Assembly: GCA_018992685.1 (NCBI GenBank)
Contig: JACVGT010000004.1
Location: 1 to 42,215, forward strand
Length of the DNA stretch: 42,215 nucleotides
Reading direction: 5' to 3'
From: Theionarchaea archaeon
GTDB taxonomy: Archaea > Methanobacteriota_B > Thermococci > Methanofastidiosales > SZ-28-30
Made by a program: the position numbers and the translations under genes. The stretch's first letter is position 1. Every line of letters begins with the position of its first letter. The notes below the pieces were generated by a model. The model was not told the DNA's origin, searched no databases, and saw only the letters and a program-made list of their open reading frames with translations. This document shows, one piece after another, positions 10,366-29,290 of the stretch.

Positions 10366-10633
10366 GCCTTTGTTCGTACGTACCTCTCTTAAGGCTATGT
10401 CTTATTTCCTCGATATGGCAGCATATGTGGACATAATTTCAGGGCATGGGAAGAAGATGTACTCAGGGATTTCTGAGAGCGGTGGAAGAATATCTATTAG
10501 AAGAAAACGGAAATGTCAAGAATTCTTATATTTGAGCAGCAATACTCTTTATAATAACAAATAGGCAATGGGAGACAGATCAGGTGCCAGCCCTGGGTGC
10601 AACCTTTTAAAAGGGCACTTGATATTACTCCCC

Positions 10634-11812
10634 ATGCTGGATGAACTGCGCAGCTTCAGCAGAAATGCTGCACTGTTTCTCGTTTCAGTAAGCATATCTT
10701 CTGTAGGTACAGGTATATTCTACCTGGTATTCAATATCTATGTTACTGAAGGCCTCCATTATTCAGAATACTTTCTGGGGGTGCTCTTATCTGCCAGTTC
10801 TATCTCTGCAGCAGTGTTCTCGCTTCCCGGGGGCATCCTGGGAGACAGGGTTGGAAGGAAACGCTGCATAATCTTAGGGACAGCTATTGTGGCACTGTCC
10901 ATGGGCGGATTAATTCGGTTCACCTCACAGACTGTTCTGGTGGCAATGAATGCCCTCCTGGGATTTGGAAGCACTCTGAACTATGTGTCATTTGCTCCTT
11001 TCATGATGGAAAATGCGACCCAGAAGGGACGAGTGCATTTATTCAGTGTCCAGGCTGCCCTGAACATATTGGGGTATACCCTGGGTGCATATCTGGGCGG
11101 GACGTTCCCTTCCCTGCTCAACGGTGACCAGACAGGTGCTCTAAGGACTACCCTTTTGATAGGGATGCTCCTGTGTTGCACAGCAGTCTTTCCGCTCCTG
11201 ATGTTACAGGAGGAGAGGAAGAGAACCATGTTTTCCACGAGAATTGTGGTCAGCCGGGCCTTGTTGAAGCGATTCCTCATAACTAATGTACTCATCGGGT
11301 TTGGCGCAGGGCTCATCGTTCCTTTCTTCAACATCTTCTTCAGGGTGAGAATGCAGGCTAGCATGGAGGTAATTGGACTCATTTTTGCCATTGGCAATGT
11401 CACTATGGGCATAGCCACATTTGTCGCCGCTCCTCTGGCATCAAGGTGGGGAAAGGTTCGTTCAATCGTTTTGACAGAGCTGGGGTCACTGCCTTTCCTG
11501 TTGATGATTGCATATTCTCCCCGGCTCGAACTGGTCACCGTGGGATTCATTGCCCGAGGGGCTCTTATGAACATGGGAAATCCTATCAGTTCTGCTTTCT
11601 TAATGGAGAATATGAAGGAGGAAGAGAGAGCGACTGCCAATGGGATTGTCATGGCTGGATGGAACGGGTCCTGGGCTGTTTCGAACGTTGCAGCAGGCAA
11701 CCTCATGAGTCGGGGTATGTACGAACTGCCTTTTCTGATAACCAGTGCGCTGTACACCATTTCCAGTGTATTGTACTATGTGTTCTTCAGATCACTTGAA
11801 AAAACTCACTAG
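10634..11812 (+). CDS. MFS transporter
   Basis: About 12 hydrophobic segments and MFS motif A (GILGDRVGRK). Start placed at ATG 10634, about 25 nt after a TTTTAAAA box. Confidence 0.9.
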   Translation: MLDELRSFSRNAALFLVSVSISSVGTGIFYLVFNIYVTEGLHYSEYFLGVLLSASSISAAVFSLPGGILGDRVGRKRCIILGTAIVALSMGGLIRFTSQTVLVAMNALLGFGSTLNYVSFAPFMMENATQKGRVHLFSVQAALNILGYTLGAYLGGTFPSLLNGDQTGALRTTLLIGMLLCCTAVFPLLMLQEERKRTMFSTRIVVSRALLKRFLITNVLIGFGAGLIVPFFNIFFRVRMQASMEVIGLIFAIGNVTMGIATFVAAPLASRWGKVRSIVLTELGSLPFLLMIAYSPRLELVTVGFIARGALMNMGNPISSAFLMENMKEEERATANGIVMAGWNGSWAVSNVAAGNLMSRGMYELPFLITSALYTISSVLYYVFFRSLEKTH

Positions 11813-12019
11813 GCAGGCCTCCTGCAGATCTCGAGGCAGATTCCATGGGTGAATTTTTCGATCCCCATTGTGATTCATAGGTGGGTCTGCAAAAATATTG
11901 GATGGCTTAGAGTACTTCAATAATGGATATGCAAGATGATCACGCGGTCAGAAAGTAGCATGGTGAGAGCAAAGGTTATAAGATTGGAATCCAACACAAT
12001 GGTAACAGAGGTGAACTAA

Positions 12020-13372
12020 ATGAAGACTCTGATTGGTATGATCCTGGGCGTACTCATTATTGGGAATATATGGTTCTATCCTCTTGTGGCCACTGGAGAA
12101 AGATTTGAGGACAGCTATTATGTATGGAACTTCGATATTGATCAATCCGGAATGGTTCACGTGGAAGTGGAATTTCACATTTTTGCAGTCCCTTTCAGGA
12201 TGACGACATGGGAACTAAGCTACGATAGAAAATGGGGAGACAAAATGACAAATATCGAGGCACAAGAAAAGACTGGTGAGGATATAAAGGTAGAAATGAA
12301 GCAATACAGTGAGACAGTTCAGTATTCTTACCGATTCAGACCGAAAAGCGCAGGTGAAGACATAGAATTCACTGTCGAATATGATCTGGAAGACGGTCTC
12401 ATCGAGATTGTGGACGAGGTTTCATATTTTGAGTTCTGGTGGACATCTGGAGAAAATTTCATGCACTTTCTTACCGATGTCTATCTGCCTGCTGGCAGTG
12501 AAGTGCTGTTCATCAGTGAGCTGGAGCCCCAAGAGGTAAGCGGGAGGACCAAACCCATAGTTCACTTTGAGGGGAAGACAAAAGGCATGGGAGTACGAAA
12601 TGGGATTGGAGTAGCGTTCTCTGAAGTGGGTAAATCGAATTTGGAGGAAGGTGATGGGGCCTACAATGCCGAAGAGTATGTAGAAGCCAGGTCGTATTAT
12701 GAGGAAGCCCTGGCCTTTTATGAGGGTATAAATCCTTTTTATGGTATGGGGAGCGATGAGTACTTTGGAGAGTTATCAGAAGAGTTTGATGTACTGATAC
12801 AGCCCACGTACATGGGATTTTCCTCTGTGTCTGCCTACACACAGGTCTTGGAAAACCTCAGGGATAAGATAGAAATGTGCCAGGAAAAGGCGGAAGAGAA
12901 AACAAGAGAGGCAGATACGCTGTTTTCTGAAGGCAAGGCCTTGTTTGAAGAAAAGAAGTATGAGGGAGCCCTGGAGACCTTTCAGAAAGCCCAGGAATTA
13001 TATCGTTCTCAGGGGGAGAGCGAGAAGGCGGAATTATGTCAGCAATACAGTGACATGTGTTCTGGATTTATTGAGGAGCAAAGGAAGAGGGAGGAGGCCA
13101 ACAGGCTACTTGGGGAAGGGATTGCCTACTCTGAGCAGGGAGATTGTGGATTGGCCGTGGAGAAGTTAGAACAGGCTTTGTCTCTGTATGAGGAATTAGG
13201 TGATGAGGAGAAAGCGCAGGAATGTACGGACAGAATACAATCTTGTGAAGGCCAGGAAGAGGAGGAATCTGAAGACGGTGGATTCTGCTTGGGGAGTACG
13301 TTCATTCTGCTTGGGTTAGGACTACTCATGTTCAGTAAGAAGCGGACACAGGGCAGATCTGCTCACGACTAG
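12020..13372 (+). CDS. Secreted/surface TPR-repeat protein with a C-terminal membrane anchor
   Basis: N-terminal signal peptide, a beta-rich domain, TPR-like helices (EGKALFEEKKYEGALETFQKAQELY), an acidic linker, then GGFCLGS, a hydrophobic helix and KKR. RBS GAGGTGA. Confidence 0.85.
   Translation: MKTLIGMILGVLIIGNIWFYPLVATGERFEDSYYVWNFDIDQSGMVHVEVEFHIFAVPFRMTTWELSYDRKWGDKMTNIEAQEKTGEDIKVEMKQYSETVQYSYRFRPKSAGEDIEFTVEYDLEDGLIEIVDEVSYFEFWWTSGENFMHFLTDVYLPAGSEVLFISELEPQEVSGRTKPIVHFEGKTKGMGVRNGIGVAFSEVGKSNLEEGDGAYNAEEYVEARSYYEEALAFYEGINPFYGMGSDEYFGELSEEFDVLIQPTYMGFSSVSAYTQVLENLRDKIEMCQEKAEEKTREADTLFSEGKALFEEKKYEGALETFQKAQELYRSQGESEKAELCQQYSDMCSGFIEEQRKREEANRLLGEGIAYSEQGDCGLAVEKLEQALSLYEELGDEEKAQECTDRIQSCEGQEEEESEDGGFCLGSTFILLGLGLLMFSKKRTQGRSAHD
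13220..13335 (+). repeat. Direct repeat copy 1 (3' end of the TPR gene)
   Basis: Ungapped alignment with 23347..23462: 116 nt with 11 mismatches (hand count). Confidence 0.93.
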
Positions 13373-13854
13373 AGAGGAACCTTCATACTGGCACGCAGAT
13401 GGGCTTTTTTCTGCCCCGTGCTTTCCGAACACCTCGATAGGGCATTGATACTCTGCACCAAGAGAGTGACAGGACAGGAAAACAGGCGCCTAACGGTTTC
13501 GGGAGTTCTACAGAATTCTCTTGCATTTTTGAGATTAGCTACGAGTTGCCTCTTTATGGCTCGGTTTCGCCAATCGCACGGATCCTTCTGATTTTTGCAC
13601 ATGGAAGCTGCAAGAAATCAAATGGATCTACATGAGGGGAGTTCGTCCTATTTCTTCTTGTGCACCTCTCTTTCTTGGAAATGGCTCGAATGTGGAGTTT
13701 GGCCTGATATATATGCAGGTTTGGACTGTGAGGAGTCTGATTTCTCAAGAAGAATGAAATGACTGTAAACTGTGCACCCATGGATAGTGGAATTGCTTTC
13801 CCTTCGTTGAAAAATCATCCAGACAGAGAATCGTGCAATACCACAAGAAAAAGA

Positions 13855-13874
13855 TTAGCAAACATTTATAAATA
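13855..13874 (+). promoter_or_regulatory. TATA box upstream of the cluster 1 precursor
   Basis: TTTATAAA at 13865-13872 with an A-rich upstream element, about 90 nt before the ATG. Confidence 0.5.
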
Positions 13875-13961
13875 CTGGAACGATACAGATGGTGCTACTC
13901 AGAGATATTCCATCGATGAGGAAATACTGAATTGGCATAAACCACCAAGGAGGTGTTGTAC

Positions 13962-14156
13962 ATGAGAATGGAATCGTTGAATGAACCAAACCTTTTGGGA
14001 ATTGAATCAGTGGACACGCCCGGATGGGATGGCATAGCTGTGGAAGACATTTCTTCGCCCTCGGCAACACCCGTTATGGTAAATCCAACGGGAAAATGTG
14101 GGGGCTGTGCGTGCGGATGCTTCGTTGTCAATTGCATGGGCCTTTCCGCATGCTGA
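13962..14156 (+). CDS. Cys-rich RiPP precursor peptide, 64 aa (cluster 1)
   Basis: GGAGGTG RBS at 13949-13955. Acidic leader and core KCGGCACGCFVVNCMGLSAC with six Cys. Lies directly upstream of four rSAM/SPASM genes. Confidence 0.85.
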   Translation: MRMESLNEPNLLGIESVDTPGWDGIAVEDISSPSATPVMVNPTGKCGGCACGCFVVNCMGLSAC

Positions 14157-14202
14157 GGCGACTCCAGGATTTCTGCAACACTGCCGATAGGAGGGCTAAA
14201 AA

Positions 14203-15567
14203 GTGCACCAATCGCGACTTAACACACTCGTGAAGGTAGGTGCGGACGAGTATCTACTTTTTAATCAAGTGACGGGAAATCTTGCCCTTGTCGACAAGGA
14301 AGTTGTTGACTTCCTTGAAATCCCGGACAATGAGGGCAATCCCGTTTCTTTTCTTTTGAAAGAGAAGGGGTTTCTCATTGAAGATGACATCGTTGAGGAT
14401 GCAGACTACTTGTGTTCTGTTCCCAAGGAGAAAGGGGAATCTCTCTTGAGGCATATCATCGTTGTCACGTATCAATGCAATCTGAGATGCTCGTACTGCT
14501 ACCAGGATGATGTGCTTTCCACACATCCTGCTGGATGGGAAACACGGGTATTGACAAGGCACCTGGTAGACGACCTGTACGACGCGATACTCTCTGCAGA
14601 GAACATCCTGTCGCACACAGGAAGCCACATTGTACTGTATGGTGGTGAGCCTTTTCTATTTCAAAACAGAGAAATTGTGGAATACATATTGAAGAAAGGA
14701 AAGGACCTTGGTTACACATTTAGAGCGATAACCAACGGAACACAGGTGGAAGCATTTGTTGACATGTTCAGAGAATATGATGTACATTCTCTTTCCATAA
14801 CACTGGATGGTCCGAAAGATATTCATGATTCTCGTCGATCAAAAGCGAATGGTAAAGGTACATTTGATGATATTATAGCCAACATTGAGATTTTGCTGAA
14901 AAATGATATTCATACTAGAATTCGAACCAATATCGATGAACAGAACCTGAAACACCTGCCACAGCTCTTGAGATTCTTTGAAGAAAGAGAATGGGATGAT
15001 AATCCATATATTGACCTCTTGTTCGCCTTTACCAGGCAGAGGAATCAAAAAGAGGTGCAGAATATTCCACAGAGTTTTTCTGAATTCCTTGCACTTCTCG
15101 AGCGTATGGATGTTGGCAAAGACCCGTGGCTGCGAGATGTGATCCTGGATCTCCTCTCAGGAACCACGCTGGCGAAGGCTATCCTTGGAAGATCACAACC
15201 ATCTAAATCCACCTCCTGGCAGTGTCCAGCAGTTGGACATGACCTGGCATATGATCCATATGGAAACATCTACGTGTGCCAACAAGTTCTTGGAAATGAG
15301 GTTCACAGTGTGGGACGGTATTCTCCCACATTTGAGTTGACCAAGAACTTTGGACAGTGGCAAGACAGGACTCTTGTTAATTTACCACGGTGTCTGGAAT
15401 GTGAATATGCATCACTCTGTGGTGGTGGATGTCCTATTTCGGCATTCAACACGTCCGGGACAATAATGGAGCCCTCACAGTCCCAGTGCAAGAGTGTGGA
15501 AGCCTACGTACATGAAGTCATTCCGCAACTTTACAGGATGGTTAAGAGAGGGTTCTTCCATGAGTAA
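14203..15567 (+). CDS. Radical SAM/SPASM peptide maturase 1 with N-terminal RRE-like domain
   Basis: Motifs CNLRCSYC, YGGEP, TNG and TLDG. SPASM C..G....C / CLECEYASLCGGGC...C. N-terminal SRLN..YLLFN..TG segment. Confidence 0.92.
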   Translation: MHQSRLNTLVKVGADEYLLFNQVTGNLALVDKEVVDFLEIPDNEGNPVSFLLKEKGFLIEDDIVEDADYLCSVPKEKGESLLRHIIVVTYQCNLRCSYCYQDDVLSTHPAGWETRVLTRHLVDDLYDAILSAENILSHTGSHIVLYGGEPFLFQNREIVEYILKKGKDLGYTFRAITNGTQVEAFVDMFREYDVHSLSITLDGPKDIHDSRRSKANGKGTFDDIIANIEILLKNDIHTRIRTNIDEQNLKHLPQLLRFFEEREWDDNPYIDLLFAFTRQRNQKEVQNIPQSFSEFLALLERMDVGKDPWLRDVILDLLSGTTLAKAILGRSQPSKSTSWQCPAVGHDLAYDPYGNIYVCQQVLGNEVHSVGRYSPTFELTKNFGQWQDRTLVNLPRCLECEYASLCGGGCPISAFNTSGTIMEPSQSQCKSVEAYVHEVIPQLYRMVKRGFFHE

Positions 15568-16975
15568 GATGAGACCTAGCTTCTACAATGTGTCTGTCAA
15601 AGTTGATGAAGACGAGTATTTATTGATGAACCCTCTCTCAGGTTCAGTAGATGTTGTTGATAAGGACGTCATAGATTTCCTAGAATCTTTCAAAGACACT
15701 TTTCAGCGTGCAGAAGCCAAGCAAGACGTCACTCAAACCTTGAGAGCGAGGAACTACCTGACTCAGAACGATAAGGAAGAAGAAATTGAAATGATGTCCA
15801 GGAAGTGCAGAAATCTCAACCGCATCAAAAGACTCTATTCTCATCATTTCACTGTAACGTATGACTGCAATATGAGATGTGCCTATTGTTTTGAGAATCC
15901 AGTAAGACCCAGAGAAAGAACGTGCAGCAGGATACTCAGCAATAAGCAAGTGGACAAGATTTTCGACATCATTGTGAAGCTCGATTCTGATATTGAGAGG
16001 GATACTGGTGGAATCCTCTGTTTGTGGGGAGGAGAACCCTTCATGCCTGAGACAGAGGACATAGTCAGATACATCTTCAGGAAGGGAGCAGAATTGGGAT
16101 ACAAGTTTGGCTACATCAACACGAATGGGCTGGCACTCACGGAGTTTGTTGAACTGCTGGAGGAATACAAGGTTCCTCTCATCAAAGTGACGCTTGATGG
16201 TCCCCCTGACATCCATGACAGGAGAAGAAAAACAGTTGATGGCTCCGGGACCTTTGACAGAATCGTTAAAGGCATAGAAGCTCTGAGCACAACAGGGGTG
16301 AAGGTAGGTCTAAGGACCAATATTGATTCCACAAATCTAGACCATCTTCCAGCTCTCCTGGATTTTTACGAGTCTCAGGGATGGCACAAAGACTCACATT
16401 TCTCATTTGCCCTAATGCCCACATATAGTGCATGGTGGGGAGATAGAGAGCTGAGCTGGAGGGAATGCATCCAGAAAGTTGAGGCCATGACAGAAAACCA
16501 TCCGCTGATGAGTATTTTTGAGACAAAATGGGAAACCAGAATTTTTGGATACCCCCGACCTTATGTGAAGGATATCGTCTTTGGGGGGGAGTGTATTCTA
16601 CCCAATTCCCACTATTGTAACGGATTCATGGTGAATATGTTATATGATCCATACGGGGACATCTATACCTGTCTGAAACTTTCTGGTGAGCCCGAACATA
16701 AAGTAGGAGTGTACATGCCTGAGTTTCAACTGAACAAGAACTACAGGTTGTGGCAGGAACGATCAGTTTTCAACATTCCAAAATGCAGGAACTGCAGCTA
16801 TTCGCCACTGTGCCGGGGCGGAAGTGCGTATCGGGCTTATTTGAAGACAGGAGACCTCACGGAACCCCACTGTGATACATTCAAGGACTTTCTTGAAGTC
16901 TTTGTGCCCCAGCTCTACAGACAATTCAAAGAGAGACGTTCTCAAGGATCCCAGGGGGGTAAAGATGAAACCTAG
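15560..16975 (+). CDS. Radical SAM/SPASM peptide maturase 2
   Basis: Motifs CNMRCAYC, WGGEP and SPASM CRNCSYSPLCRGGS. Start placed at ATG 15560 (or 15569) by overlap with the upstream stop and by paralog alignment. Confidence 0.92.
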   Translation: MSKMRPSFYNVSVKVDEDEYLLMNPLSGSVDVVDKDVIDFLESFKDTFQRAEAKQDVTQTLRARNYLTQNDKEEEIEMMSRKCRNLNRIKRLYSHHFTVTYDCNMRCAYCFENPVRPRERTCSRILSNKQVDKIFDIIVKLDSDIERDTGGILCLWGGEPFMPETEDIVRYIFRKGAELGYKFGYINTNGLALTEFVELLEEYKVPLIKVTLDGPPDIHDRRRKTVDGSGTFDRIVKGIEALSTTGVKVGLRTNIDSTNLDHLPALLDFYESQGWHKDSHFSFALMPTYSAWWGDRELSWRECIQKVEAMTENHPLMSIFETKWETRIFGYPRPYVKDIVFGGECILPNSHYCNGFMVNMLYDPYGDIYTCLKLSGEPEHKVGVYMPEFQLNKNYRLWQERSVFNIPKCRNCSYSPLCRGGSAYRAYLKTGDLTEPHCDTFKDFLEVFVPQLYRQFKERRSQGSQGGKDET

Positions 16976-18347
16976 CTTCTACAATGTGTCAATGAGGGTT
17001 GATGAAGACAAGTACTTGTTGATGAATCCTCTTTTCGGGTCCCTGGACGAGGTCGACAAGGAAGTAATCGAGTTCTTGGATTCATGGGAGGAAACTAGGG
17101 ACATATATGATTCAAGAATAATGGAGCATCTGATAAAGAGGGGATATCTGACAGAAAGGTCCGATGATGAAGAGATGGCCCTAATGCAGAAGAAGTGCTG
17201 TGAGATCCATGAACGCTACAGGCATTGTAAGCATGCCATAATTGTGACCTACGACTGCAACATGAATTGCGCATATTGTTTTGAGAGTGGAGCGTGGAGT
17301 AGAGGACTAGCCTGGAGAAAGAAAGTCATCTCCAAGGAGCAGGTGATGAGAATTTTTGATTTAATTGGTGAGCTGAATTCAGAATTCCCCCACATCCGGG
17401 AAGAAAAAGTGTCACTTTATGGAGGAGAACCCTTGATGGCTGGGAACATGGGGATCATTGAATTCATTTTAGAAAAGGGAACAGAAGCAGGATATAGATT
17501 TGATGTAAACACCAACGGGCTTGACCTTAAGGAATTTGCGCCTCTTTTGGTGCATTATGGGCTTTCTCCCGTAAGGACTACCATAGATGGCCCCCCTGAA
17601 ATCCATGACAAGAGGAGAACTAATGGGAAAAAAGGGACTTTTCATGATATTGTTGAGGGAATTGAAGCGATTCAAGATAGTAAGATTGAGATTGGGATCA
17701 GAGTGAATGTTGACTTGGATACTATAAAATATCTGCCCGAGCTCGCTCATTTTATCCAGGAGAAAGGATGGTTTGATCATCCTCGTATGCGTTTCGCTCT
17801 GTGCGCAATTGTTGGCTGTGTCGGGAAGGACATTGCTGTACCATCGCTTAGCCGCATTATCAAGGAAGTCATTCACCTGTCTCAGGAGCACCCTCTTGTC
17901 CGCCGCTTTAGAGCAGACTGGGAAGGAACTGTGAGGGGCGTTCCAGAACCCAACCTCATTCGTGTCATGATGAACGGTGTTCCCCTGGTCCCTCGTTCTG
18001 TGTACTGTGAGGCCCATATTGGCCTGATGGGTTACGACCCGCATGGAGACGTTTACTCTTGCCCCCGATTTGTTGGACACCCTGAGCAAAAGATTGGCAC
18101 ATATATACCTCTGCTGAAGTTTACCGAGAACTATGAACGCTGGCAAAACAGATCGATTTTCACAATGCCAAAATGTACAGCGTGCAACAATTCTCCACTC
18201 TGTGGAGGTGGCTGTGCGCACAAGGCATTTCTGGAAACAGGTGACATAACAAATCCTTCGTGTAAAGCTTTTAACGCATTTACTAAACATTGTTTGCCAT
18301 ATGTGTACAAGAGATGGAAGGGACGGCAGCCAACTAATAGTGTTTGA
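16965..18347 (+). CDS. Radical SAM/SPASM peptide maturase 3
   Basis: Motifs CNMNCAYC, YGGEP and SPASM CTACNNSPLCGGGC. Start MKPSFYN at 16965, matching maturase 2. Confidence 0.92.
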   Translation: MKPSFYNVSMRVDEDKYLLMNPLFGSLDEVDKEVIEFLDSWEETRDIYDSRIMEHLIKRGYLTERSDDEEMALMQKKCCEIHERYRHCKHAIIVTYDCNMNCAYCFESGAWSRGLAWRKKVISKEQVMRIFDLIGELNSEFPHIREEKVSLYGGEPLMAGNMGIIEFILEKGTEAGYRFDVNTNGLDLKEFAPLLVHYGLSPVRTTIDGPPEIHDKRRTNGKKGTFHDIVEGIEAIQDSKIEIGIRVNVDLDTIKYLPELAHFIQEKGWFDHPRMRFALCAIVGCVGKDIAVPSLSRIIKEVIHLSQEHPLVRRFRADWEGTVRGVPEPNLIRVMMNGVPLVPRSVYCEAHIGLMGYDPHGDVYSCPRFVGHPEQKIGTYIPLLKFTENYERWQNRSIFTMPKCTACNNSPLCGGGCAHKAFLETGDITNPSCKAFNAFTKHCLPYVYKRWKGRQPTNSV

Positions 18348-18363
18348 AGACGTATTGAGAGTG

Positions 18364-20151
18364 ATGATCATGAACGAAACCCACATGTACATAAGGTGGA
18401 GTGAAGATTCCATCTGGGACGAACGTGATGGCAGGGTACTCATCTGTCGCTTACCAGAACTTGATTTTGCGGCTGATTTAAGGATAGGAAAGAATCTCAT
18501 ATGGCTCAATCGTGAAGGATCTCGTGTGTGGAACCTTTGTGATGGGACCCGTACTCTGGAGGGAATAATCTCCCTGCTTCTTGATGCTCATACTGTGGAA
18601 CACGCTGTTCTGGAAAAGGATGTCACAGACCTTGTTCACACCCTGTACCACAGAGGTCTTATCGAATTCAGAGAAGAAAAAGCATCCCCTCCTCACATGC
18701 AGTCCATAGACCGAGGACCTCTGGCGTGGAGCGAAAGCGTTGTGTGGAATGACATGGATGAGGAGGTTGGAATCCTGAACTGCAAAGACGGTAGCATGAT
18801 TGTCTTGGGGTCTTCAGAACGTGAACTGTGGAGAATGTGTGATGGAACTCGCACCGCGAAGGATATTATCGCTGGAATAAAAAGTGAGAAAAACCTGGCG
18901 GAAAACTACGCAATGCTGCTGGCAAGAATCCTCCACAAGCTGGGATTTTTGGTTATTGGACCGAGCGGCGAAGGTATGCAGGAAGCGAGTAGCAAATGGA
19001 GAAAAACGAAGACGGGGAAATACGCTTCGGAACAGGATGCTTCTTCTAGTCATAATCACTTTCTGGTGCAGTATCACATTACGGGGAAATGCAATTTGGG
19101 ATGCCGCCACTGTTACGAAGATGAAAGAATAAAAAAAGAGATTTCCACACGAGATACGATAGCAGTAATTGACAAGTGTTTCGAGACCTTGAATGCTTGG
19201 GGATATGTGGTTCATCTCATTCTCAGTGGGGGGGAACCGCTACTCAGGAATGACTTTTGGGAGATTATGGATCATGCACAGTCTTGTTACAGCCGCAGGT
19301 ACCCCAACACAGTGTCTCTCATGAGCAATGGCACATTACTGGATGAAAGAATAGCGGCGCGGTTATCTGACTACACCGCTTTTGGAGGAGTTCAGATCAG
19401 TCTGGATGGAACAAAAAAAGAAACACACGACAAAATCCGAGGAGAGGGGAGCTTCCAGAAAGCATTGAGAGCTCTAGCCTATTTGAGAGAGAAAAAGATT
19501 GTAACCTCGATTCACTTTGTCGTCCATAGGAAGAACTATGAAGATGCATTTGAGATAGCAGATTTGGCCAGACACTTAAACGTCAACCTCTGTGTTACGA
19601 GACTCGTCCCCTGCGGCAGAGGAAAAGAGATGGAATCCTTCATGTTAACACCACAAGAAGTGTTCGCGTTGTTCAGAAAGTTGAGCCACGACGAAGACGT
19701 TTTATCTGAAGCACGAGCTCGGCACGAGACCTCAACCTCTATTTCACGGTTTCGATGCGACTGGCCAGTCACCTATGCGGGACATGACCGAAAGACTGAT
19801 GAGCTCCGTTATCCATTTACGAAAAACGGTGGGAAGTGCCAGATTGGGAGAGGGCTTCTCACCATTATGCAGGATGGAACAGTCTATCCCTGCAGAAGAT
19901 TGCCCGTTCCTGTTGGAAATCTGCTGGAAGAGAAGTTCCCCGAAATCTGGAATAATGTTTTTTTCTGGAAAATGAGAAGAAAGAATCGTTATATGAAAGG
20001 AAAATGTGCAGAATGTGAATTCAACTGTGATGCGAGCCTTGATTTCTCATGCAGTGGAGGAGCTTCGTGTATTTCACATGGATTTTATGGTGACCCTTTC
20101 CACCCTGATCCTGGATGCCTGTACAACCCGGAGAAAGGCTCATTTGAATAG
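18364..20151 (+). CDS. Radical SAM/SPASM protein with two tandem N-terminal PqqD/RRE domains
   Basis: Two PqqD-type segments (LNREGSRVWNLCDGTRT...DV..LV..L...GLI and ERELWRMCDGTRT...LHKLGFL), then CNLGCRHC, SGGEP and SPASM ending PDPGC. Start uncertain (18340-18370). Confidence 0.9.
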   Translation: MIMNETHMYIRWSEDSIWDERDGRVLICRLPELDFAADLRIGKNLIWLNREGSRVWNLCDGTRTLEGIISLLLDAHTVEHAVLEKDVTDLVHTLYHRGLIEFREEKASPPHMQSIDRGPLAWSESVVWNDMDEEVGILNCKDGSMIVLGSSERELWRMCDGTRTAKDIIAGIKSEKNLAENYAMLLARILHKLGFLVIGPSGEGMQEASSKWRKTKTGKYASEQDASSSHNHFLVQYHITGKCNLGCRHCYEDERIKKEISTRDTIAVIDKCFETLNAWGYVVHLILSGGEPLLRNDFWEIMDHAQSCYSRRYPNTVSLMSNGTLLDERIAARLSDYTAFGGVQISLDGTKKETHDKIRGEGSFQKALRALAYLREKKIVTSIHFVVHRKNYEDAFEIADLARHLNVNLCVTRLVPCGRGKEMESFMLTPQEVFALFRKLSHDEDVLSEARARHETSTSISRFRCDWPVTYAGHDRKTDELRYPFTKNGGKCQIGRGLLTIMQDGTVYPCRRLPVPVGNLLEEKFPEIWNNVFFWKMRRKNRYMKGKCAECEFNCDASLDFSCSGGASCISHGFYGDPFHPDPGCLYNPEKGSFE

Positions 20152-20288
20152 CACGTACCGCTTGATACATCCATACAGATCAAGGAGTGGGCAGAACTGG
20201 CTGCTCCCTGATATAAGAGACCCGGGCAGTTAACCTGAACAGATGTGCATGACAAGAACGCCTCCCTCTACCTGGGCCTGACGCATTT

Positions 20289-21290
20289 TCAGGTCATCAT
20301 TTCATCTTTCCGGCTTTGGCAGGTCTGATTCTCACAGTATGCAAGCTCTTTCTCATAGACTATATCCTCTCTCAAGGTCTCAAACCCTAGTGAGCCATAG
20401 AGATCGAGCGCTTGAGGATTCTCTGCATCGACATTAAGGTGTATGGTTGCTATACCTTCCTGCGAAAGCCACTTCACGGCATGGGATATCAGAGCTCTGC
20501 CAATACCTTTTCCGCGGTACAATTTAGTGACACCGAGTAAGCGCACCATTCCTGTCTTCGTGTTATTTTCTCCATTTCTTGGAGGCTGTACACCGTACGC
20601 ACAAAAACCAATAGTCTTGAAACCATCTTTGGCAAAAGTGACTCTAGCTGATCCTGTGCTGGTATCCCTGGATCTGGCGAGTTGCTGTACTGTCATGGGG
20701 GAGAAATTGTAGTGCTCCGAAAAGGCGTCGTTGTAGGTCTCCACAAAGATCGTTAGCTCCTCATCAGTGACTTCCTGGATCATTTTATGTTCCAAGTAAA
20801 TGCTATCCGGGGGCCGATAGACATGTGGTTCCCCGTTCTTCTTCCATATCATCATGTATCCATGTCGAACATCTTTGAAGCCAAACTCTCGGGCGAGATC
20901 ATGTCTCCACCCCTTTGTGCCCATGCAGTACTGCTGAACAGTGTGTACTCTTTTTGAGACGAGATATTCCAGCGAAAGCAGCATCATGTGCTGCTCTATT
21001 CCTTTGCCTCTATGCTCTGGGACTACTTCCACACCTGCCCACGCATTGTTCAGTCCCATGTCTATGTGGGATTCATGGACATCTCCTCCCCCATATCCCA
21101 CTGCTTTGTTGTCTATTTCAGCCAGCCAATGGCTCTCTGGATCGTAATCTGTTTCTTCCAGGACGTGAAGGCAGAACTCCTGGGCAGTGACCTGCCTCTG
21201 CCGTGGGAAGTCCGCATTGGAGCGATTCAGAATATCGACAATAGCTGCTGCGTCGGCTTTGGTAGGATGTCGATACTCGATGTATGACAT
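20289..21290 (-). CDS. Tandem-GNAT acetyltransferase
   Basis: Two acetyl-CoA binding motifs (VVPEHRGKGI and LGVTKLYRGKGIG) and ENPQALDLYGSLGF. Confidence 0.88.
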   Translation of the reverse strand: MSYIEYRHPTKADAAAIVDILNRSNADFPRQRQVTAQEFCLHVLEETDYDPESHWLAEIDNKAVGYGGGDVHESHIDMGLNNAWAGVEVVPEHRGKGIEQHMMLLSLEYLVSKRVHTVQQYCMGTKGWRHDLAREFGFKDVRHGYMMIWKKNGEPHVYRPPDSIYLEHKMIQEVTDEELTIFVETYNDAFSEHYNFSPMTVQQLARSRDTSTGSARVTFAKDGFKTIGFCAYGVQPPRNGENNTKTGMVRLLGVTKLYRGKGIGRALISHAVKWLSQEGIATIHLNVDAENPQALDLYGSLGFETLREDIVYEKELAYCENQTCQSRKDEMMT

Positions 21291-21396
21291 GCATTGCAGA
21301 GAATAACACAGGTAATAAGCATTTCGGTGGGGCTGTGTAGCTCTTTTTGCCAGAAATCTTTATAAGCACAGCACGTAAGGGAAGTGAGGATTCTCA

Positions 21397-23286
21397 ATGA
21401 TGCTGCACTGTACACCGCCGTATTTATGGTATGTTCCGAATCCAGCAATAGGTTATCTAAAAGGATTTCTTGAAGCAAAAGGTATACAAGTAAGAAATAT
21501 CTATTGGAATCTGATCCTATATCCAGAAATTATGAAGTATGAAGAAAGAAGGAGGAATCCATTTACAGAGTTTAATGAATATAGTATGAGGAGAAACCTC
21601 AGGTCAGTGTCCCTGGAACTCGACTTCTATGAGATGGCTTCCTTGTATATCTGTAAACACTTGCTCACTCAGGTCAAAGGATGTCCTAAAGAAACACCGC
21701 TTGATAGGTTCTTTTCGTCAATTGCTTCCAAGGACGAGATCACTCAGTTAGTAAGGTCAGTCAGGGAGAGGATTGACAGTTATATTCTGGAGAACAATCT
21801 CAATGAGGCACATATTGCGGGATTCACCATGAAGTCTGATCAGTGGATGATGAGTTCATACATATTCTCCCGATTGAAAGAGATGAACCCAGACACTATC
21901 ATTGTCATCGGAGGGCTTGCCAATGAATCCCGGGCACGAGCATTCATGCAGGTTTTCAGCGATGTTGATTTTGCCATATGGGGAGAAGGTGAATATCCCC
22001 TGGTCCAGCTGATCACAACACTGGAAGAGGGTACAGCCCTGGAAAAGGTTCCACAGCTAATCTACAGAGACGGTGCAACCATCCAGTCTTCTGGAAAGAA
22101 AGCTGAATGTGTTGACCTGGATTCGCATCCTTTTGCGGATCATTCAGATTACTTCGATGCACTGAAAGCTCTCTCCCAGATCACAAGGATTCAGTGCACT
22201 GTTTCCATTCCCATTTGGGGAAGCAGGTCCTGTCCGTGGAACAAGTGCAGGTTCTGTGTCCTGAGCGAGGAGTACTCTTATCGTGCTAGGTCTCCGGAAA
22301 ATATTGTGGAAGAGGTACGGTTCCAGGTTGAAAAACACGATGTCAGTGCATTCTATTTTCTGGATAATGAACTTCCTGGAAACAAGAGAAGATTCAGGAC
22401 TCTCTTGAAACTTCTGGTGGCACTGTCAGCAGATCAGACTTCTCATTATGCCTTCTGTGGTGAGGTATCTCCCGTTTTTATAGATCCTGAAACAGCACAC
22501 TGCCTGCATGATGCGTCATTTAGCTCAGTTCAGATAGGGTTCGAGGCTGTGGCAGATTCTCTCCTGGAAAAAGTAGAAAAACGACATCGGTTTGCCCATA
22601 ACATTCAAGCTCTGAAGCTTGGCCGCCAGCATAACCTGAATCTTATTAGTCTCAATGTCTTGAGGGGAATTCCCACCGAGTCACCTGAAGATGTTCTAGA
22701 AAGCTGCGAAAATCTCGATTTTCTGAGATTTCTTCTTACTACGTATCCACTTATTCCCATTTCGCTTCTCTTATGTAAAGGGTCTACCTTCTATGAGGAA
22801 ATGTCGAAGGCCGAAAGAGAAGCCTGGAAATTGAATCGAAGCTACTTGGAAATTGCTTCAACAGGTCTTATTCCTCAGTCTGAGAGGTTCGAGTTCTTCG
22901 GCTTTTTCAGAGAATCCCATCATGAGCTATGGAACGATTTCGAAAAGAAAATGGAATCTTATATAAAAGAGAACCGTTCTTATACATGGACTGAATATGA
23001 GAATTGCTCTCTTGTCGAGGAGAAAGGCCCTGAATTTCACAGATACGTTCTAGATCGAGATGAAACTGATATACTCGTTTTCTGTGATCTGATCAAGCCA
23101 TTTAATAGGCTGGAAGAGGAATTTGACTATTTGGGTAAGACCCGTCTGATTGAGATATTAAGTCGGTTGAAAGAGGCTGGGCTGCTGTACTATGACAAAG
23201 ATATGCATACTATCATCTCTATACTTGAGACCTACAGAAGGGAGACTGTTTCTTCGAATTCATCCCCAGATAGTTATGATACATGA
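21397..23286 (+). CDS. Cobalamin-dependent (class B) radical SAM enzyme, RiPP C-methyltransferase-like
   Basis: B12-binding domain (PNPAIGYLKG...IVIGG...GEGE), SRSCPWNKCRFC cluster motif, QIGFE, and a C-terminal winged-helix-like segment. Confidence 0.85.
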   Translation: MMLHCTPPYLWYVPNPAIGYLKGFLEAKGIQVRNIYWNLILYPEIMKYEERRRNPFTEFNEYSMRRNLRSVSLELDFYEMASLYICKHLLTQVKGCPKETPLDRFFSSIASKDEITQLVRSVRERIDSYILENNLNEAHIAGFTMKSDQWMMSSYIFSRLKEMNPDTIIVIGGLANESRARAFMQVFSDVDFAIWGEGEYPLVQLITTLEEGTALEKVPQLIYRDGATIQSSGKKAECVDLDSHPFADHSDYFDALKALSQITRIQCTVSIPIWGSRSCPWNKCRFCVLSEEYSYRARSPENIVEEVRFQVEKHDVSAFYFLDNELPGNKRRFRTLLKLLVALSADQTSHYAFCGEVSPVFIDPETAHCLHDASFSSVQIGFEAVADSLLEKVEKRHRFAHNIQALKLGRQHNLNLISLNVLRGIPTESPEDVLESCENLDFLRFLLTTYPLIPISLLLCKGSTFYEEMSKAEREAWKLNRSYLEIASTGLIPQSERFEFFGFFRESHHELWNDFEKKMESYIKENRSYTWTEYENCSLVEEKGPEFHRYVLDRDETDILVFCDLIKPFNRLEEEFDYLGKTRLIEILSRLKEAGLLYYDKDMHTIISILETYRRETVSSNSSPDSYDT

Positions 23287-23346
23287 GGGCTTGTCCACAC
23301 CCAACAGAATGCAGTACTTTCTTTTGTCCCATATGCTGGATTTGCT

Positions 23347-23475
23347 GAGTGTAAGGACAGAATACAATCTTGTGAAAGCCAGGAAGAGGAGGAATCTGAA
23401 GAAGGCGGATTCTGCTTAGGGAGTTTTCTCATTCTGCTTGGGTTAGGATTACTCATGTTCAGAAGAAGGGGGTGA
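23347..23475 (+). repeat. Direct repeat copy 2: orphan 3' gene fragment encoding ECKDRIQSCESQEEEESEEGGFCLGSFLILLGLGLLMFRRRG*
   Basis: About 90% identical to 13220..13335. No in-frame start codon between the upstream TGA (23284-23286) and the fragment. Confidence 0.92.
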
Positions 23476-23650
23476 CATCGAGATCTCCTTGAGTTACACA
23501 GGGATTTCTCCTTTCAGTGAGGAGACGCATCTAGCTGGAGAGACACGTCATTCAGGAAAGGGATGGCGGATTTGGTTCTCGTGAAGAGAACTGCGTACTT
23601 ATGATATATTCTTGTGCATAGGTTTATAAAGCAGTAATTTCTGTTGATAT

Positions 23651-25891
23651 ATGGACGACAATGGATCAGGGTTGGAAGGAACTAGCGAAGCAGGCGAATT
23701 CGAGTTCTTAGAGGGCATACCTGCAGGTGCCTATGAGGTCGATAAGGAAGGGAATTTCTTGTACTGCAATCAGGAGGCAGCCCACCTGCTTGGATATGAT
23801 TCTGCAGAAGAGTTATCACAAAAGAATATCTATGATCTCTATTTTGATAGAAATGACCGAGAACGGGTATTAGAAAGGACGAGAACCCTTGGAGGTCGGA
23901 TGAAAAGTTACATCCGGTGGAAGCGGAAGAACGGATCTGAAGTGGTGGTCAATGATTTTGCTGAGTTTGTCTGCAACAAAAGGGGTGAAGAATCCGGAAT
24001 TCGTGGCATCTTCGTCGAGGCCACATATGAGCGGTTGTTTGATGATCTTAATGCAGGAATATACCGGGTGGGCCCCGATAACAAGACTATCGAGCTGGTC
24101 AACAAGGCAGTTGCCAGAATCTTTGGATTCAACTCGCCCGAAGAAATGAGAGGATATGACATCTCAAAACTCTACAGATATCCAAAGGATTATCGGGAAT
24201 TCATGGAGTATCTTGAGAAAAATCAGAAAGTAGAGAATTATCCCCTGGAGATGAAAAGAACAGACGGAGAGCCTGTCATTATATCAGTGAGTTGTCACGT
24301 ACTGCAAAATAAACAGGGAGAGATCGTTGGAAGAGAAGGTACATTTACGGATGTCACAGAGCAGCAGAGATATAGAGAATTGCTGGAAATACCATTGGGA
24401 GTCTACGAGGCCAAAATAAAGGATGGCAAGCCGATTATCATCTTCTGTAACGAGAAATTCATTGAGATGTTTGGCTATTCGTCGGAAAAGGAGTTGATTG
24501 GCAGGAATATTCATGAACTGTATGCTAACGAAAAGGACGTTGAACAGTTCGAAAAAGCTTTGAAGGAAGCTGACGAAGAGAACAAGCCTCTCGACTATTT
24601 ACTGAAGGTAAAAAGGAAAGCAAGTCAAAAGGAAGGGGGAGAAAGAGAGGAATTTTGGATCAAGATATATTGCTATCCAAGAGAAGATGAAGAAGGAAAT
24701 ATTATTGGCAGAATAGGAACTGCCATGGATGTTACCGATAGAATGGAACTGGAGAGGATTATCGAAACAAGAAAGGACATACAGAGGTTCATTCACGGAT
24801 TCATTGCGCCAATGATGAGCATTCATGCCACAAGCCAGGTTGTGGCCAGGGAAGTTGAACGTGGAATTGGCATCAGATATGGTCTTGAAGACATGGTGAG
24901 ACTTCAACGGAAAAAACGTAACACGATGCATCTTTTTGATGAGATGAGGACTACATCTGAGGCTCTGGCAGAAAAAATTGGAAACCTCATTACACTGGGT
25001 CGACTTGAACCGGCATTTGATGAAAGACACATCCATGAATTGACGAACATAAAGAACAGTGTGGAAAGAGAAATCACAGACATTGTGCGAAGGATCATTG
25101 AAGTGAGAAAACTACACAAGGATACTTACAGCAAATTGAACGACGTTCTTGCATTCATCAGAACTGAAAGAAGAATTGAAAATAGCAGAGAACTTTCAGA
25201 TCTAATCAAGTTGTGTTTCATTGATCTCGACGAATTAGATAGTACCTACTTACTGTATTTAACGCAGAGCATCCTGAATAAATCCAAAATTGCCTATCAT
25301 GACGTAGAAGGGCTTCGTCAGCTTATGATGAGGGTTGGGGACGAACACATCGAACAGCTCTTCGAATTCCAGCCTACAAACCTCTTAGATATGGTTGAAG
25401 ATACAATTGATATGTATCGGATTGATGCATCCCTTAAAGGCATTTTAATTCGTTCTCCCCGAGGGAAGATACCAGAGGTCGACGTTTCTCGGAGTCACCT
25501 GGAAAGAATGCTCTCGTATGTCATCCAGAATGCAGTAAAATACTCTTTCAAGAGGGATGGCTATATTCATGTTGATTTCAGGGTGGGAGGGGATTCTGTC
25601 CAAATCGATGTAGAAGATTATGGAGTTGGTATTCTTCACGAAGAAATCGAATCCGGCAAAATCTTCGAATACGGATATAGGGGAAAATTCTCCCGTGATC
25701 GTAACAGGACCGGATCAGGCATTGGACTTTCTGAAGCCAAGAGGATTTCTGAGGCCCACGGTGGACATATCAAAGTAGAAAGCGCGCCTGTGGGCGATCA
25801 TGGAGAGGTCATAACTCACAACACACCTCATAAGACGACAATTTCCATATTTCTGCCGATAAGGCAAGAAAAGGGTGATTTGAATGGTTAG
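23651..25891 (+). CDS. Soluble multi-PAS sensor histidine kinase
   Basis: Three PAS/PAC repeats, H-box-like FIHGFIAP, N box NAVKYS, G1 DYGVGI and G2 GSGIGL. TTTATAAA at 23623-23630 suggests a leaderless mRNA. Confidence 0.9.
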   Translation: MDDNGSGLEGTSEAGEFEFLEGIPAGAYEVDKEGNFLYCNQEAAHLLGYDSAEELSQKNIYDLYFDRNDRERVLERTRTLGGRMKSYIRWKRKNGSEVVVNDFAEFVCNKRGEESGIRGIFVEATYERLFDDLNAGIYRVGPDNKTIELVNKAVARIFGFNSPEEMRGYDISKLYRYPKDYREFMEYLEKNQKVENYPLEMKRTDGEPVIISVSCHVLQNKQGEIVGREGTFTDVTEQQRYRELLEIPLGVYEAKIKDGKPIIIFCNEKFIEMFGYSSEKELIGRNIHELYANEKDVEQFEKALKEADEENKPLDYLLKVKRKASQKEGGEREEFWIKIYCYPREDEEGNIIGRIGTAMDVTDRMELERIIETRKDIQRFIHGFIAPMMSIHATSQVVAREVERGIGIRYGLEDMVRLQRKKRNTMHLFDEMRTTSEALAEKIGNLITLGRLEPAFDERHIHELTNIKNSVEREITDIVRRIIEVRKLHKDTYSKLNDVLAFIRTERRIENSRELSDLIKLCFIDLDELDSTYLLYLTQSILNKSKIAYHDVEGLRQLMMRVGDEHIEQLFEFQPTNLLDMVEDTIDMYRIDASLKGILIRSPRGKIPEVDVSRSHLERMLSYVIQNAVKYSFKRDGYIHVDFRVGGDSVQIDVEDYGVGILHEEIESGKIFEYGYRGKFSRDRNRTGSGIGLSEAKRISEAHGGHIKVESAPVGDHGEVITHNTPHKTTISIFLPIRQEKGDLNG

Positions 25892-27666: not shown

Positions 27667-27833
27667 CTGAAGGAATCTGAATCGTGTGTGGGGTGCTGCA
27701 CTGAATTGTGTGATTACAACACCTACGTGGTCGGTTGATGAAAACCTGGACTACTCTCTTCTGCTCAGGCCCTCCCCGTGATGATCTCTATCGTTGTCCA
27801 AACATTTTTATAGACATCAGAACTGGGAAAACC

Positions 27834-28754: not shown

Positions 28755-29204
28755 GTTCTATTTCACATCACTTTGTCTTAAATCCTGCAGAGAAATAGGA
28801 AGCATCTACGGTTGTGGACTAAAGGGCATGTGGGGGTTCTACTGACCCAGACGTTCTCTTCATTCCGCAATGCAAGAATTGGAACAGGTGGCTTTAGGAA
28901 CATATCCCCGAACAGGATGATGTACTTTTCTTTTAATTTATATAGGTAGTGGGATATTTAAAGACTTTTTTCATATGCATTCTCACCTGAAATTACGACC
29001 CACTCTTGAGAATGATTTTAGAAGATGAACTGGATTCATTCAAAGGATATCTTGACCGAATTGTTCCAAATTTCTCTTAGATAGTGTGAAAGCTCAGTAT
29101 TCTGTCAGTATGAGCAATTAGAATACTTGCATGTGAAACCAGTTTTCTTTTGAATTAGAAATAATAAACATAAATATCTAAAAAGACATTAATTCATCAA
29201 AAGA

Positions 29205-29222: not shown

Positions 29223-29290
29223 CTTAGGGTAATTCTAACAACGGAATCTAGGTCAGATTCTGTAGCACAAAATCAACGGAGGTGAAACCA

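Follow-up and report, generated by a model that had tools for sequence, protein, structure and literature searches.

A six-cysteine peptide with four radical SAM enzymes: a putative peptide-maturation operon in a Theionarchaea genome

The window analyzed here (a 42,215-nt stretch of a Theionarchaea contig, from an uncultured archaeon of sediment) very probably contains a real radical SAM (rSAM) peptide-maturation operon, with the small gene at 13962–14156 encoding its precursor. With four rSAM enzymes for one small six-Cys peptide, it is an unusually enzyme-rich member of an unnamed peptide family. A genuine leader-dependent operon is supported by several lines of evidence given below; the full explanation, a leader-guided, multi-enzyme RiPP-type operon with thioether chemistry included, is favored with less assurance. 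The thioether (sacti- or ranthi-) assignment is suggested by analogy with characterized relatives.

Gene layout and the precursor family

A check of the sequence and its ORFs found all seven genes of the original prediction within 13962–23286, at the positions it gave. They and their surroundings are as follows.

13220–13350, + strand: direct repeat, copy 1 (131 nt, 86% identical to 23347–23477, spacing 10127)
13865–13874, + strand: TATA-box-like TTTATAAATA upstream of the precursor gene, a putative archaeal promoter
13962–14156, + strand: precursor, 64 aa, with a leader (residues 1–44/45) and a six-Cys core (45–64)
14203–15567, + strand: A, 454-aa rSAM/SPASM protein with a putative N-terminal RRE-like domain, of the "first-position" clade
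15560–16975, + strand: B, 471-aa rSAM/SPASM protein with one SPASM Cys replaced by Ser
16965–18347, + strand: C, 460-aa rSAM/SPASM protein, sister of B, with a complete SPASM motif
18364–20151, + strand: D, 595 aa, with a tandem RRE/PqqD-like region (about 1–200) fused to rSAM/SPASM (about 233–592)
20289–21290, − strand: GNAT, two-domain, with two stretches matching Acetyltransf_1 (PF00583; 88.2 bits, cut-off 20.7)
21397–23286, + strand: B12-type rSAM, class-B-like (Radical_SAM 54.6 bits), TIGR03975-like
23347–23477, + strand: direct repeat, copy 2, a remnant of the coding end of a C-terminal membrane anchor

The first repeat copy is the 3′ end of a TPR/membrane-anchor gene (12020–13372), and the second lies in frame just beyond the TGA that ends the B12-type gene. 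Between them lie the precursor, A–D, GNAT and B12-type rSAM genes and no others. As had been noted earlier, neither ORFs nor Pfam matches indicate a peptidase or transporter in 13962–23286. The seven genes have no orthologs in the sister genomes G001–G003 and may therefore have arrived together; two JGI metagenome scans yielded no orthologous cassette.

The six Cys of the precursor are residues 46, 49, 51, 53, 58 and 64. That this 64-codon frame should be no real gene, or should encode something other than the substrate, is very improbable. The point in favor of that view is that no library model matches it: Pfam and NCBIfam gave no family, SCIFF and other curated Cys-rich precursor models included, and ten members of its family had no credible NCBIfam match even at E ≤ 10. 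Against it, a strong ribosome binding site (GGAGGTG, 13949–13955) stands at an ideal spacing of six bases ahead of the ATG, and the gene lies directly ahead of the first maturase gene, A. Homologs also exist. A search of 5.8 billion sequences found 15 family proteins of 46–64 aa, and one of 1.84 billion representatives found 20, among them P0029, which is identical to the window precursor at 42 of 64 residues (66%) and keeps all six Cys. A paralog on contig C18 of the window's own genome has an ortholog in G001, one sister genome has five further members, and at least 19 further short proteins share the leader and Cys-rich tail; wherever the context of family members can be viewed, they adjoin A-type genes. 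The precursor is therefore conserved, where the original prediction had named lack of conservation as a point that would tell against it.

The motifs shared by the leaders are, in order, an LNE block at the N-terminus, a block centred on Trp, an SPS block and a junction of the form Pro-x-Gly. All named members come from Theionarchaea/Methanofastidiosia. The family is restricted to this little-studied lineage, and with no Pfam or NCBIfam match it would be missed by model-based annotation.

Maturases A to D

The three genes following the precursor had been described as tightly coupled paralogs, and their arrangement bears this out: A and B share 8 nt, from the ATG of B to the end of A, B and C share 11 nt, and the proteins are 33–41% identical (A–B 35%, A–C 33%, B–C 41%). 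All match Radical_SAM (56.6–70.9 bits, cut-off 29.5) as well as Fer4_12 in Pfam; taken over A–D and the B12-type protein, Radical_SAM scores span 54.6–91.7 bits. CxxxCxxC and GGEP are kept in A, B and C, the former being invariant in seven of seven aligned A-type sequences, and C matches the SPASM model TIGR04085 at 50.1 bits (cut-off 27). The best NCBIfam matches of the three are CefB, TIGR04463, geopeptide maturase and PapB. Membership in any characterized or named equivalog was rejected: the best scores, 85–168 bits, fall far short of every cut-off (in bits, PapB 340, SCIFF maturase 425, TIGR04463 525, CefB 600).

Among solved structures, the best sequence match of A is CteB (E 1.4e-18), with anSME second (E 6.8e-15). 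A Foldseek search with a model of A also placed CteB first (6e-13), followed by TigE, anSME and SuiB. The model is modest (mean pLDDT 64.5, from a seven-row alignment), and its TM-score to CteB is 0.43–0.48. Its N-terminus, with block-mean pLDDT of 67–87 over residues 1–60, has strands at 7–11, 16–21 and 26–31 and helices at 32–39, 47–54 and 63–76. This modeled arrangement of three strands and three helices resembles an RRE. Pfam PqqD gave no match at the front of any of the three enzymes. The description of A, B and C as CteB-like enzymes is supported.

The three differ in their SPASM domains. The seven-Cys motif (CX9-15GX4C, CX2CX5CX3C, C) is complete in A and C, whereas B has a Ser at the final Cys position of CX2CX5CX3C; all four aligned relatives keep the Cys. 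Judged by this residue, B may not be a full catalyst, and a TrnC/TrnD-like complex is for this reason a live rival: A, B and C would assemble into a hetero-oligomeric maturase with just one or two catalytic members, the rest, and B in particular, serving as scaffold or peptide chaperone. The start/stop overlaps, which suggest stoichiometric co-production, fit such a complex, as does the requirement of CrpC for its AuxI cluster described in the available part of PMC13692751. On the other side, each of the three retains the N-terminal domain, the conserved CxxxCxxC and GGEP suggest that probably all cleave SAM, and identities of 33–41% are equally compatible with different specificities. We regard the complex as possible but rather doubtful.

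Separate roles for the enzymes, as first proposed, fit their phylogeny. B and C are sisters (99/92), A falls in a different subclade, and none of 200 bootstrap trees unites A, B and C in a single clade. The accompanying expectation of usually one maturase per peptide agrees with related loci elsewhere, 69 of 79 of which carry a single A-type enzyme. Within the lineage, several A-type enzymes per peptide are the local norm, and multi-enzyme cassettes are lineage-wide and present in many copies: the genome itself has at least 15 A-type genes, and the unit in G001 loci consists of a precursor, about two A-type enzymes, a D-type enzyme and a separate tandem-PqqD protein.

D, whose frame is open from 18301, matches PqqD (59.3 bits), Radical_SAM (91.7) and SPASM (PF13186; 45.8, cut-off 21.5). 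The tandem PqqD reading holds, with its second copy weak by sequence and backed by motif and model. The first copy scores 45.8–59.3 bits against the PF05402 cut-off of 23.4 and the second 20.1, under that cut-off; the two match each other by internal BLASTP (E 1e-5), and a duplicated W-x-L/M-C-D/x-G motif is found in all six aligned homologs. An AlphaFold model of the N-terminus has two strand-strand-strand-helix-helix-helix repeats, and Foldseek matched it to the leader-bound RRE of TbiB1 (target TM 0.83–0.85), ThcOx, PbtF, lasso B1 and PqqD. The ThcOx match extends over 220–226 alignment columns; ThcOx carries two RRE-like domains. The closest solved relatives of D are SkfB (E 2.2e-12) and PqqE (E 2.3e-9), and its nearest NCBIfam families include AhbD, NirJ, MftC (135 bits) and PqqE, all with cut-offs missed. 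The two halves of D are separate genes in G001 and on contig C1 of the window's own genome, so that D joins by fusion what other loci encode as two genes. Fused orthologs are P0030 and P0031. Of 133 genomes of the class, three have D-type proteins at E ≤ 1e-60, and these belong to one genus.

The acetyltransferase and B12-type radical SAM genes

Both remaining genes are transcription units apart from precursor-A–D, and it is a serious, if less favored, possibility that the cassette is a five-gene operon only, with GNAT and possibly the class-B-like rSAM as neighbors acting on other substrates. GNAT is encoded on the opposite strand, a separate TATA-like site (about 21349–21358) precedes the B12-type gene, and searches of 15 related archaeal loci and of 79 genome loci turned up no GNAT. 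Relatives of GNAT at 40–50% identity are numerous, some labeled mycothiol synthase or from Thermoplasmatota, and the two GNATs of the window are unrelated to each other (E 0.29). As for the mycothiol synthase label, MshD (TIGR03448) is the best NCBIfam match of GNAT but was rejected as an identification, scoring 82.7 against a cut-off of 163.1.

Against a five-gene limit stand the 131-nt repeats, which enclose just these seven genes, and the shared lack of orthologs in G001–G003. For GNAT there is in addition the ortholog P0033 (74%), which, like the fused-D ortholog P0030, lists a 283403-nt longest contig of another Theionarchaea MAG. Its link to the pathway is nevertheless only hinted at, and its membership is uncertain.

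The B12-type enzyme appears more closely connected. It has four paralogs in the genome, of which one (C13:52595–54379) lies in a single strand run downstream of two A-type genes and a Cys-rich peptide of 38 aa, and those on C7 and C3 adjoin other RiPP-type rSAM genes; these paralogous cassettes tie the enzyme to this system. Of the original designation as a B12-rSAM, the rSAM part is borne out by its Pfam match, while the B12-binding domain (PF02310) reaches 23.7 bits, under its cut-off of 32.1. The protein resembles the RiPP rSAM C-methyltransferases of TIGR03975 over their full length (profile positions 12–601 of 606), at a sub-threshold score (178.2 bits, cut-off 281.85). The suggestion that the product is methylated and acetylated accordingly divides: methylation by the class-B-like rSAM has moderate support from the paralogs on C13, C7 and C3, and acetylation by GNAT, missing as it is from related cassettes, is a weak proposal.

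Proposed maturation and comparison with known systems

The analysis itself establishes the gene anatomy, a conserved precursor family, a recurring module and the resemblances in fold and family; in the preferred explanation, binding, order of action, product fate and every chemical step are our inferences. The precursor and A–D would be expressed from one promoter with translational coupling, and RRE-type winged-helix domains, one at the front of each of A, B and C and a tandem pair in D, would hold the leader. A, B and C would most probably remove hydrogen from residues of the core and link the six Cys sulfurs to carbons of neighboring residues, closing thioether rings of the sactionine or ranthionine type. 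Since the core contains no Asp, Glu, Thr or Gln and almost no polar acceptor residues, the partners would be carbons, alpha or side-chain, of Gly, Ala, Val, Phe, Asn, Leu, Ser or Met. The SkfB/PqqE-like D would add a further radical modification of unspecified type, the separately transcribed class-B-like rSAM would probably methylate the peptide, and GNAT may acetylate it.

Acceptors such as Asp, Glu, Thr and Gln are typical of ranthipeptides, and their absence counts against the thioether reading. Family cores have up to 11–12 Cys in about 24 residues, the rest being only Gly and hydrophobic residues, and relatives that are up to about half Cys make a carbon partner for every Cys impossible. 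Perhaps no thioethers form, and the core stays a thiol-rich metal or iron-sulfur binder or undergoes other radical chemistry (C–C cross-links, Cys-to-formylglycine-type oxidation, C-terminal Cys processing), the product being intracellular and not a secreted antibiotic. The lack of a protease or exporter in the cassette agrees with this, as do the enzymes near A and D: anSME, second among solved relatives of A, is a Cys/Ser oxidase, and none of AhbD, NirJ, MftC and PqqE forms thioethers. A metal-related role is also suspected for CrpA by its authors, in the part of PMC13692751 available. We nonetheless consider an outcome without thioethers unlikely. The characterized enzymes nearest by sequence and by fold (CteB, PapB and the family of CrpC) form thioethers in Cys-rich cores, and A and C, with three AuxI Cys, match the open-site arrangement that, as predicted in the same part of PMC13692751, could bind a substrate Cys.

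A larger joint reading can be proposed as speculation, and is improbable taken as a whole. The "LNKKLW...SP...CGGC" peptides of Theionarchaea/Methanofastidiosia would be a new RiPP class with hyper-Cys/Gly cores as poly-thioether cages (for example with Cys-to-Gly alpha-carbon links), made by obligate sets of phylogenetically distinct CteB-like enzymes and a tandem-RRE-guided SkfB/PqqE-like enzyme. The many cassettes would be a diversifying arsenal, or would encode metal- or sulfur-handling peptides, and the window would hold the most elaborate, with four SPASM enzymes (one with an altered auxiliary cluster) and methylation.

Archaeal rSAM-RiPP products are described as essentially unknown in the part of PMC12144867 available. 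With its core of 20 residues and four SPASM enzymes that can be separated from one another, the operon offers a compact test case for the sharing of one short Cys-rich substrate among several radical enzymes, for the role of a tandem RRE, and for the question whether a SPASM domain has a catalytic or a structural part when an AuxI ligand is missing. If the chemistry proves to be ordinary thioether formation, the ranthi- and sactipeptide families would gain an interesting member, but an incremental one.

Of characterized systems, CteB/thermocellin (SCIFF; PDB 5WGG/5WHY) is like A in its rSAM core and seven-Cys SPASM; its N-terminal RRE-like domain and its action on a Cys-rich core behind a leader correspond to what is predicted for A. 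The differences are considerable: Foldseek identity is only 16–18%, the SCIFF-maturase model TIGR03974 gives 85–91 bits against 425, and SCIFF systems have one SPASM enzyme per peptide, whereas the window has four and a core without Thr/Asp-type acceptors. CefB (NF038107) is the top NCBIfam model for A, B and C (129–168 bits against 600, best over about the first 270 residues), but the Cys spacing in the window is not the "Cys-every-fifth" of the family name; that name is NCBIfam's, and the literature search found no experimental work on the family. D is like PqqE and MftC in that D-type enzymes elsewhere are paired with a separate PqqD-type protein, and unlike PqqE/PqqD and MftC/MftB in that the PqqD module is tandemly duplicated and here fused to the enzyme.

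More than one SPASM rSAM enzyme is found in the thuricin CD cluster, where TrnC and TrnD act together on a Cys-containing precursor, as described in the available part of PMC12093266. That system differs in having two enzymes for two peptides and in being bacterial. The only archaeal rSAM thioether synthase found in the literature search is CrpC, a TIGR04463 member that makes ranthionine cross-links in Methanococcus voltae (2026; PMC13692751, as far as available). CrpC is an archaeal RRE-rSAM-SPASM enzyme, the architecture predicted for A, B and C, with a Cys-rich substrate that has a leader-like N-terminus. TIGR04463 ranks second or third among the NCBIfam matches of A, B and C, which are non-members at 119–132 bits against 525. 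Its substrate CrpA is a 28.8-kDa protein with C-X-X-Q/D repeats, modified by a single enzyme; the window, in contrast, has a 64-aa peptide without C-X-X-Q/D motifs and several enzymes.

Gene order, boundaries and surroundings

The genes present between 13962 and 23286 are exactly those named in the original prediction, and the region is very probably a real multi-enzyme radical SAM (rSAM) peptide-maturation operon:

13962-14156, precursor frame, which reads MRMESLNEPNLLGIESVDTPGWDGIAVEDISSPSATPVMVNPTGKCGGCACGCFVVNCMGLSAC
14203-15567, enzyme A, rSAM/SPASM
15560-16975, enzyme B, rSAM/SPASM paralog of A
16965-18347, enzyme C, rSAM/SPASM paralog of A and B
18364-20151, enzyme D, tandem RRE/PqqD-like region joined to rSAM/SPASM
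20289-21290, minus strand, GNAT
21397-23286, plus strand, B12-type (class-B-like) rSAM

A GGAGGTG lies six bases 5' of the precursor ATG and a TATA-like TTTATAAATA about 90 bases upstream. The precursor stop is 46 nt from the start of A; A and B overlap by 8 nt, B and C by 11 nt, and C and D are separated by 16 nt. Pfam identifies Radical_SAM domains in enzymes A to D and in the B12-type gene, which also gives a below-threshold B12-binding match. D additionally matches PqqD and SPASM, and the minus-strand gene matches GNAT in two stretches. Upstream of the precursor, some 590 nt (13373-13961) contain no convincing gene and no Rfam match; Rfam returned zero matches across the whole window.

Just these seven genes are bracketed by a direct repeat:

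13220-13350 and 23347-23477, direct repeat of 131 nt, 86% identity

The first copy is the 3' end of a TPR/membrane-anchor gene, and the second, a remnant of a membrane-anchor gene end, continues the reading frame of the last gene past its TGA stop. The remnant stretch (23287-23477) encodes an acidic linker, GGFCLGS, a hydrophobic helix and a basic tail; that it shares the frame of the B12-type rSAM gene is probably a matter of chance, one in three. Because of the bracketing repeats, and because other cassettes have close orthologs in the sister genome G001 while no ortholog of this one was found there, the cassette looks like a lineage-specific insertion, with the qualification that no empty site was seen in the sister genomes and that G001 is 88% complete, with a contig ending at the TPR gene. 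On that contig (L107, G001:C151) only 17 nt follow the TPR ortholog (77% identity), so the G001 assembly stops at the point expected for the start of the repeat and cassette. The histidine-kinase gene was likewise not found in G001. Contigs from four runs over 11500-25500 were short pieces only; none spans the stretch, and none contains a joint that omits what lies between the repeats.

As the original prediction had it, neither a peptidase nor a transporter lies inside the cassette. Genes of these and other kinds are found on either side:

8756-9769, M20 peptidase
10568-11812, MFS gene
23651-25891, PAS histidine-kinase gene
26290-39384, separate RiPP-like cluster, behind the PAS histidine-kinase gene

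The downstream cluster encodes two proteins without assignment (458 and 292 aa), a GNAT, an rSAM/SPASM enzyme and three B12-type rSAM enzymes. An S8 subtilase and an MFS transporter are encoded there too; the cluster may provide proteolysis or export in trans. The two GNATs of the window were considered as possible paralogs and rejected (E 0.29). An unrelated 7-deazaguanine (queuosine/archaeosine precursor) set at 1718-4180 comprises a small rSAM protein, a FolE2-type GTP cyclohydrolase and QueC.

The precursor family

Conservation of the precursor was borne out by genome and profile searches, which found a paralog, an ortholog and further family members. The paralog, on contig C18 of the source genome, is 52 aa long and is followed by two genes related to enzyme A (A-type). 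Directly 3' of this cassette is a gene for an 1882-aa RHS-repeat protein (L017, G000:C18, 1995-7643, minus strand). G001 carries an ortholog of the C18 precursor locus and at least five further family members adjoining A-type genes. Among 5.8 billion proteins searched by profile, 15 were members (46-64 aa), all annotated "hypothetical" and none with a Pfam domain. A full HMMER search of 1.84 billion representatives gave 20 at E <= 0.001; 19 of these are short, and the other, of 953 aa (P0023), matches the profile in six stretches. None of ten members tested (10/10) had a credible NCBIfam match. Source names of family members are Theionarchaea or Candidatus Methanofastidiosia. Among JGI metagenomes, a scan with the precursor pair gave 73 pattern matches and 0 relatives, and one with enzyme A a single fragment, 28% identical. 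The sequencing runs listed as containing the sequence comprise 13 DNA runs from five studies, five of these runs being possible sources of the genome, and no RNA run.

Leaders have three elements in common: (L/V)N-x-x-(L)W, SP(S/D) and a Pro-x-Gly junction. Those of the window type carry 12 more residues at the N-terminus, a block with an LNE motif of its own that resembles the SLN(D/E) leader start of the bacterial relatives. This block is also kept in P0029 (63 aa, from contigs of at most 2040 nt), which is identical to the window peptide at 42 of 64 positions and retains all six Cys, with a seventh where the window peptide has Leu61.

Recurrence and history of the cassette

Related units occur elsewhere with a different gene arrangement. 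Those in G001 comprise a precursor, roughly two A-type genes and an rSAM/SPASM gene related to D (D-type), which is 40-44% identical to D over approximately residues 203-595; D residues 3-212 have their counterpart in a separate protein, at 24-28% identity. The split form is also found on contig C1 of the source genome, with a D-type gene 47% identical to D; no precursor was identified upstream of the tandem-PqqD gene in this cassette or its G001 ortholog. Fused forms are P0030 (607 aa, 65% identical over the N-terminal part), from another Theionarchaea MAG, and P0031 (59%), from a Logan contig. D fuses what are two separate genes in other cassettes. Within the class, D-type genes (E <= 1e-60) occur in three of 133 genomes, which belong to one genus. 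Among 79 A-related loci in species-representative genomes, 69 have one A-type gene and ten have two or more (five Theionarchaea, two of them overlapping; two Thermococcaceae; three bacterial); D-type or tandem-PqqD genes were seen in six, from Theionarchaea only. A-type matches in the source genome are found in 15 places on seven contigs.

A tree was built from 53 A-type rows, omitting hits with fewer than 300 aligned residues, after sequences over 520 aa were cut to 480 and two duplicate rows dropped. In this tree B is sister to C (99/92), and the pair clusters with the enzymes in second position in the C18 cassette and its G001 ortholog (93/89). A, on a long branch, falls in another subclade with the first-position enzymes of the same two cassettes (88/93), and none of 200 bootstrap trees unites A, B and C as one clade. 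A recent tandem triplication therefore does not account for the three genes. The predicted division of labour among the maturases fits this split, in that A and B/C could have different roles, but the tree is no proof of it.

A main alternative for the extent of the cassette is a five-gene unit, the GNAT and perhaps also the B12-type gene being unrelated neighbours. The B12-type gene has its own TATA-like site. No GNAT counterpart was found in any related cassette searched, and in G001-G003 its best matches reach no more than 28-29% identity. A GNAT ortholog (P0033, 74%) and the fused-D ortholog P0030 both list a longest contig of 283403, which hints at co-location without implying adjacency. 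The B12-type rSAM has four paralogs in the source genome (35-56% identity): that on contig C7 is 2 kb from a D-type gene, that on C3 follows two other rSAM/SPASM genes, and that on C13 (49.5%) belongs to a cassette encoded on one strand:

L100 (G000:C13:50000-59000), 2536-7225, 38-aa Cys-rich peptide, two A-type rSAM and B12-type rSAM

This cassette is inserted between ABC-transporter genes, separating a Bmp/PnrA-like substrate-binding gene from those for the ATPase and permease, which suggests that cassettes of this type move as units.

Comparison with known maturases

The best solved relatives of D are SkfB and PqqE. Its NCBIfam matches (AhbD, TIGR04053, NirJ, MftC and ACGX-system rSAM) are all below cut-off, the last at 130.8 bits against 400. 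ACGX-repeat peptides form a peptide family; a literature search joining ACGX with radical SAM found nothing. Of the tandem PqqD pair originally proposed, the first copy is clear but the second, at 20.1 bits, is under the 23.4 cut-off. The two halves match each other (E 1e-5), and a duplicated W-x-L/M-C-D/x-G motif is present in six of six homologs. The model of this region (mean pLDDT 73.5) has two strand-helix repeats, and Foldseek matched it to the leader-bound RRE TbiB1 (target TM 0.83-0.85), ThcOx, PbtF, lasso B1 and PqqD. A predicted complex of D residues 1-215 with the precursor scored 0.51 (best of three controls 0.02), with runs agreeing in at least 57% of contacts and a partner pLDDT of at least 43. 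Of 80 solved complexes 58 pass the mark for such scores, as do two of 110 mismatched pairs; passes at 0.60 or lower include only seven of the 80 solved complexes and both passing mismatches. Since RRE-leader complexes have already been solved, the pass may reflect structures already known to the predictor, and the prediction lends weak support to precursor binding by this part of D.

Pairwise identities among the three paralogs are 35% for A and B, 33% for A and C, and 41% for B and C. Their best NCBIfam models include CefB (129-168 bits, cut-off 600), TIGR04463 (119-132, cut-off 525), geopeptide maturase and PapB, all far below cut-off. CteB is the best solved relative of A (E 1.4e-18), with anSME next. 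The AlphaFold model of A (mean pLDDT 64.5, from an alignment of seven rows) begins with three strands then three helices, the RRE topology; Foldseek ranked CteB first (6e-13), followed by TigE, anSME, SuiB and ChlB, at TM values of only 0.43-0.48. One main rival to thioether formation is another kind of chemistry, or a peptide that binds metal.

CxxxCxxC and GGEP are kept in all three enzymes, and the seven-Cys SPASM motif is full in A and C. In B, Ser replaces the last Cys of CX2CX5CX3C, a position that is Cys in four of four aligned relatives. Another main rival is accordingly a complex like TrnC/TrnD (PMC12093266) in which B would be present without being catalytic. The most likely chemistry, with moderate confidence, is that A, B and C cross-link the six Cys through thioethers. 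The TIGR04463 family includes CrpC of Methanococcus voltae, which, according to a 2026 report (PMC13692751), forms ranthionine links on a Cys-rich protein.
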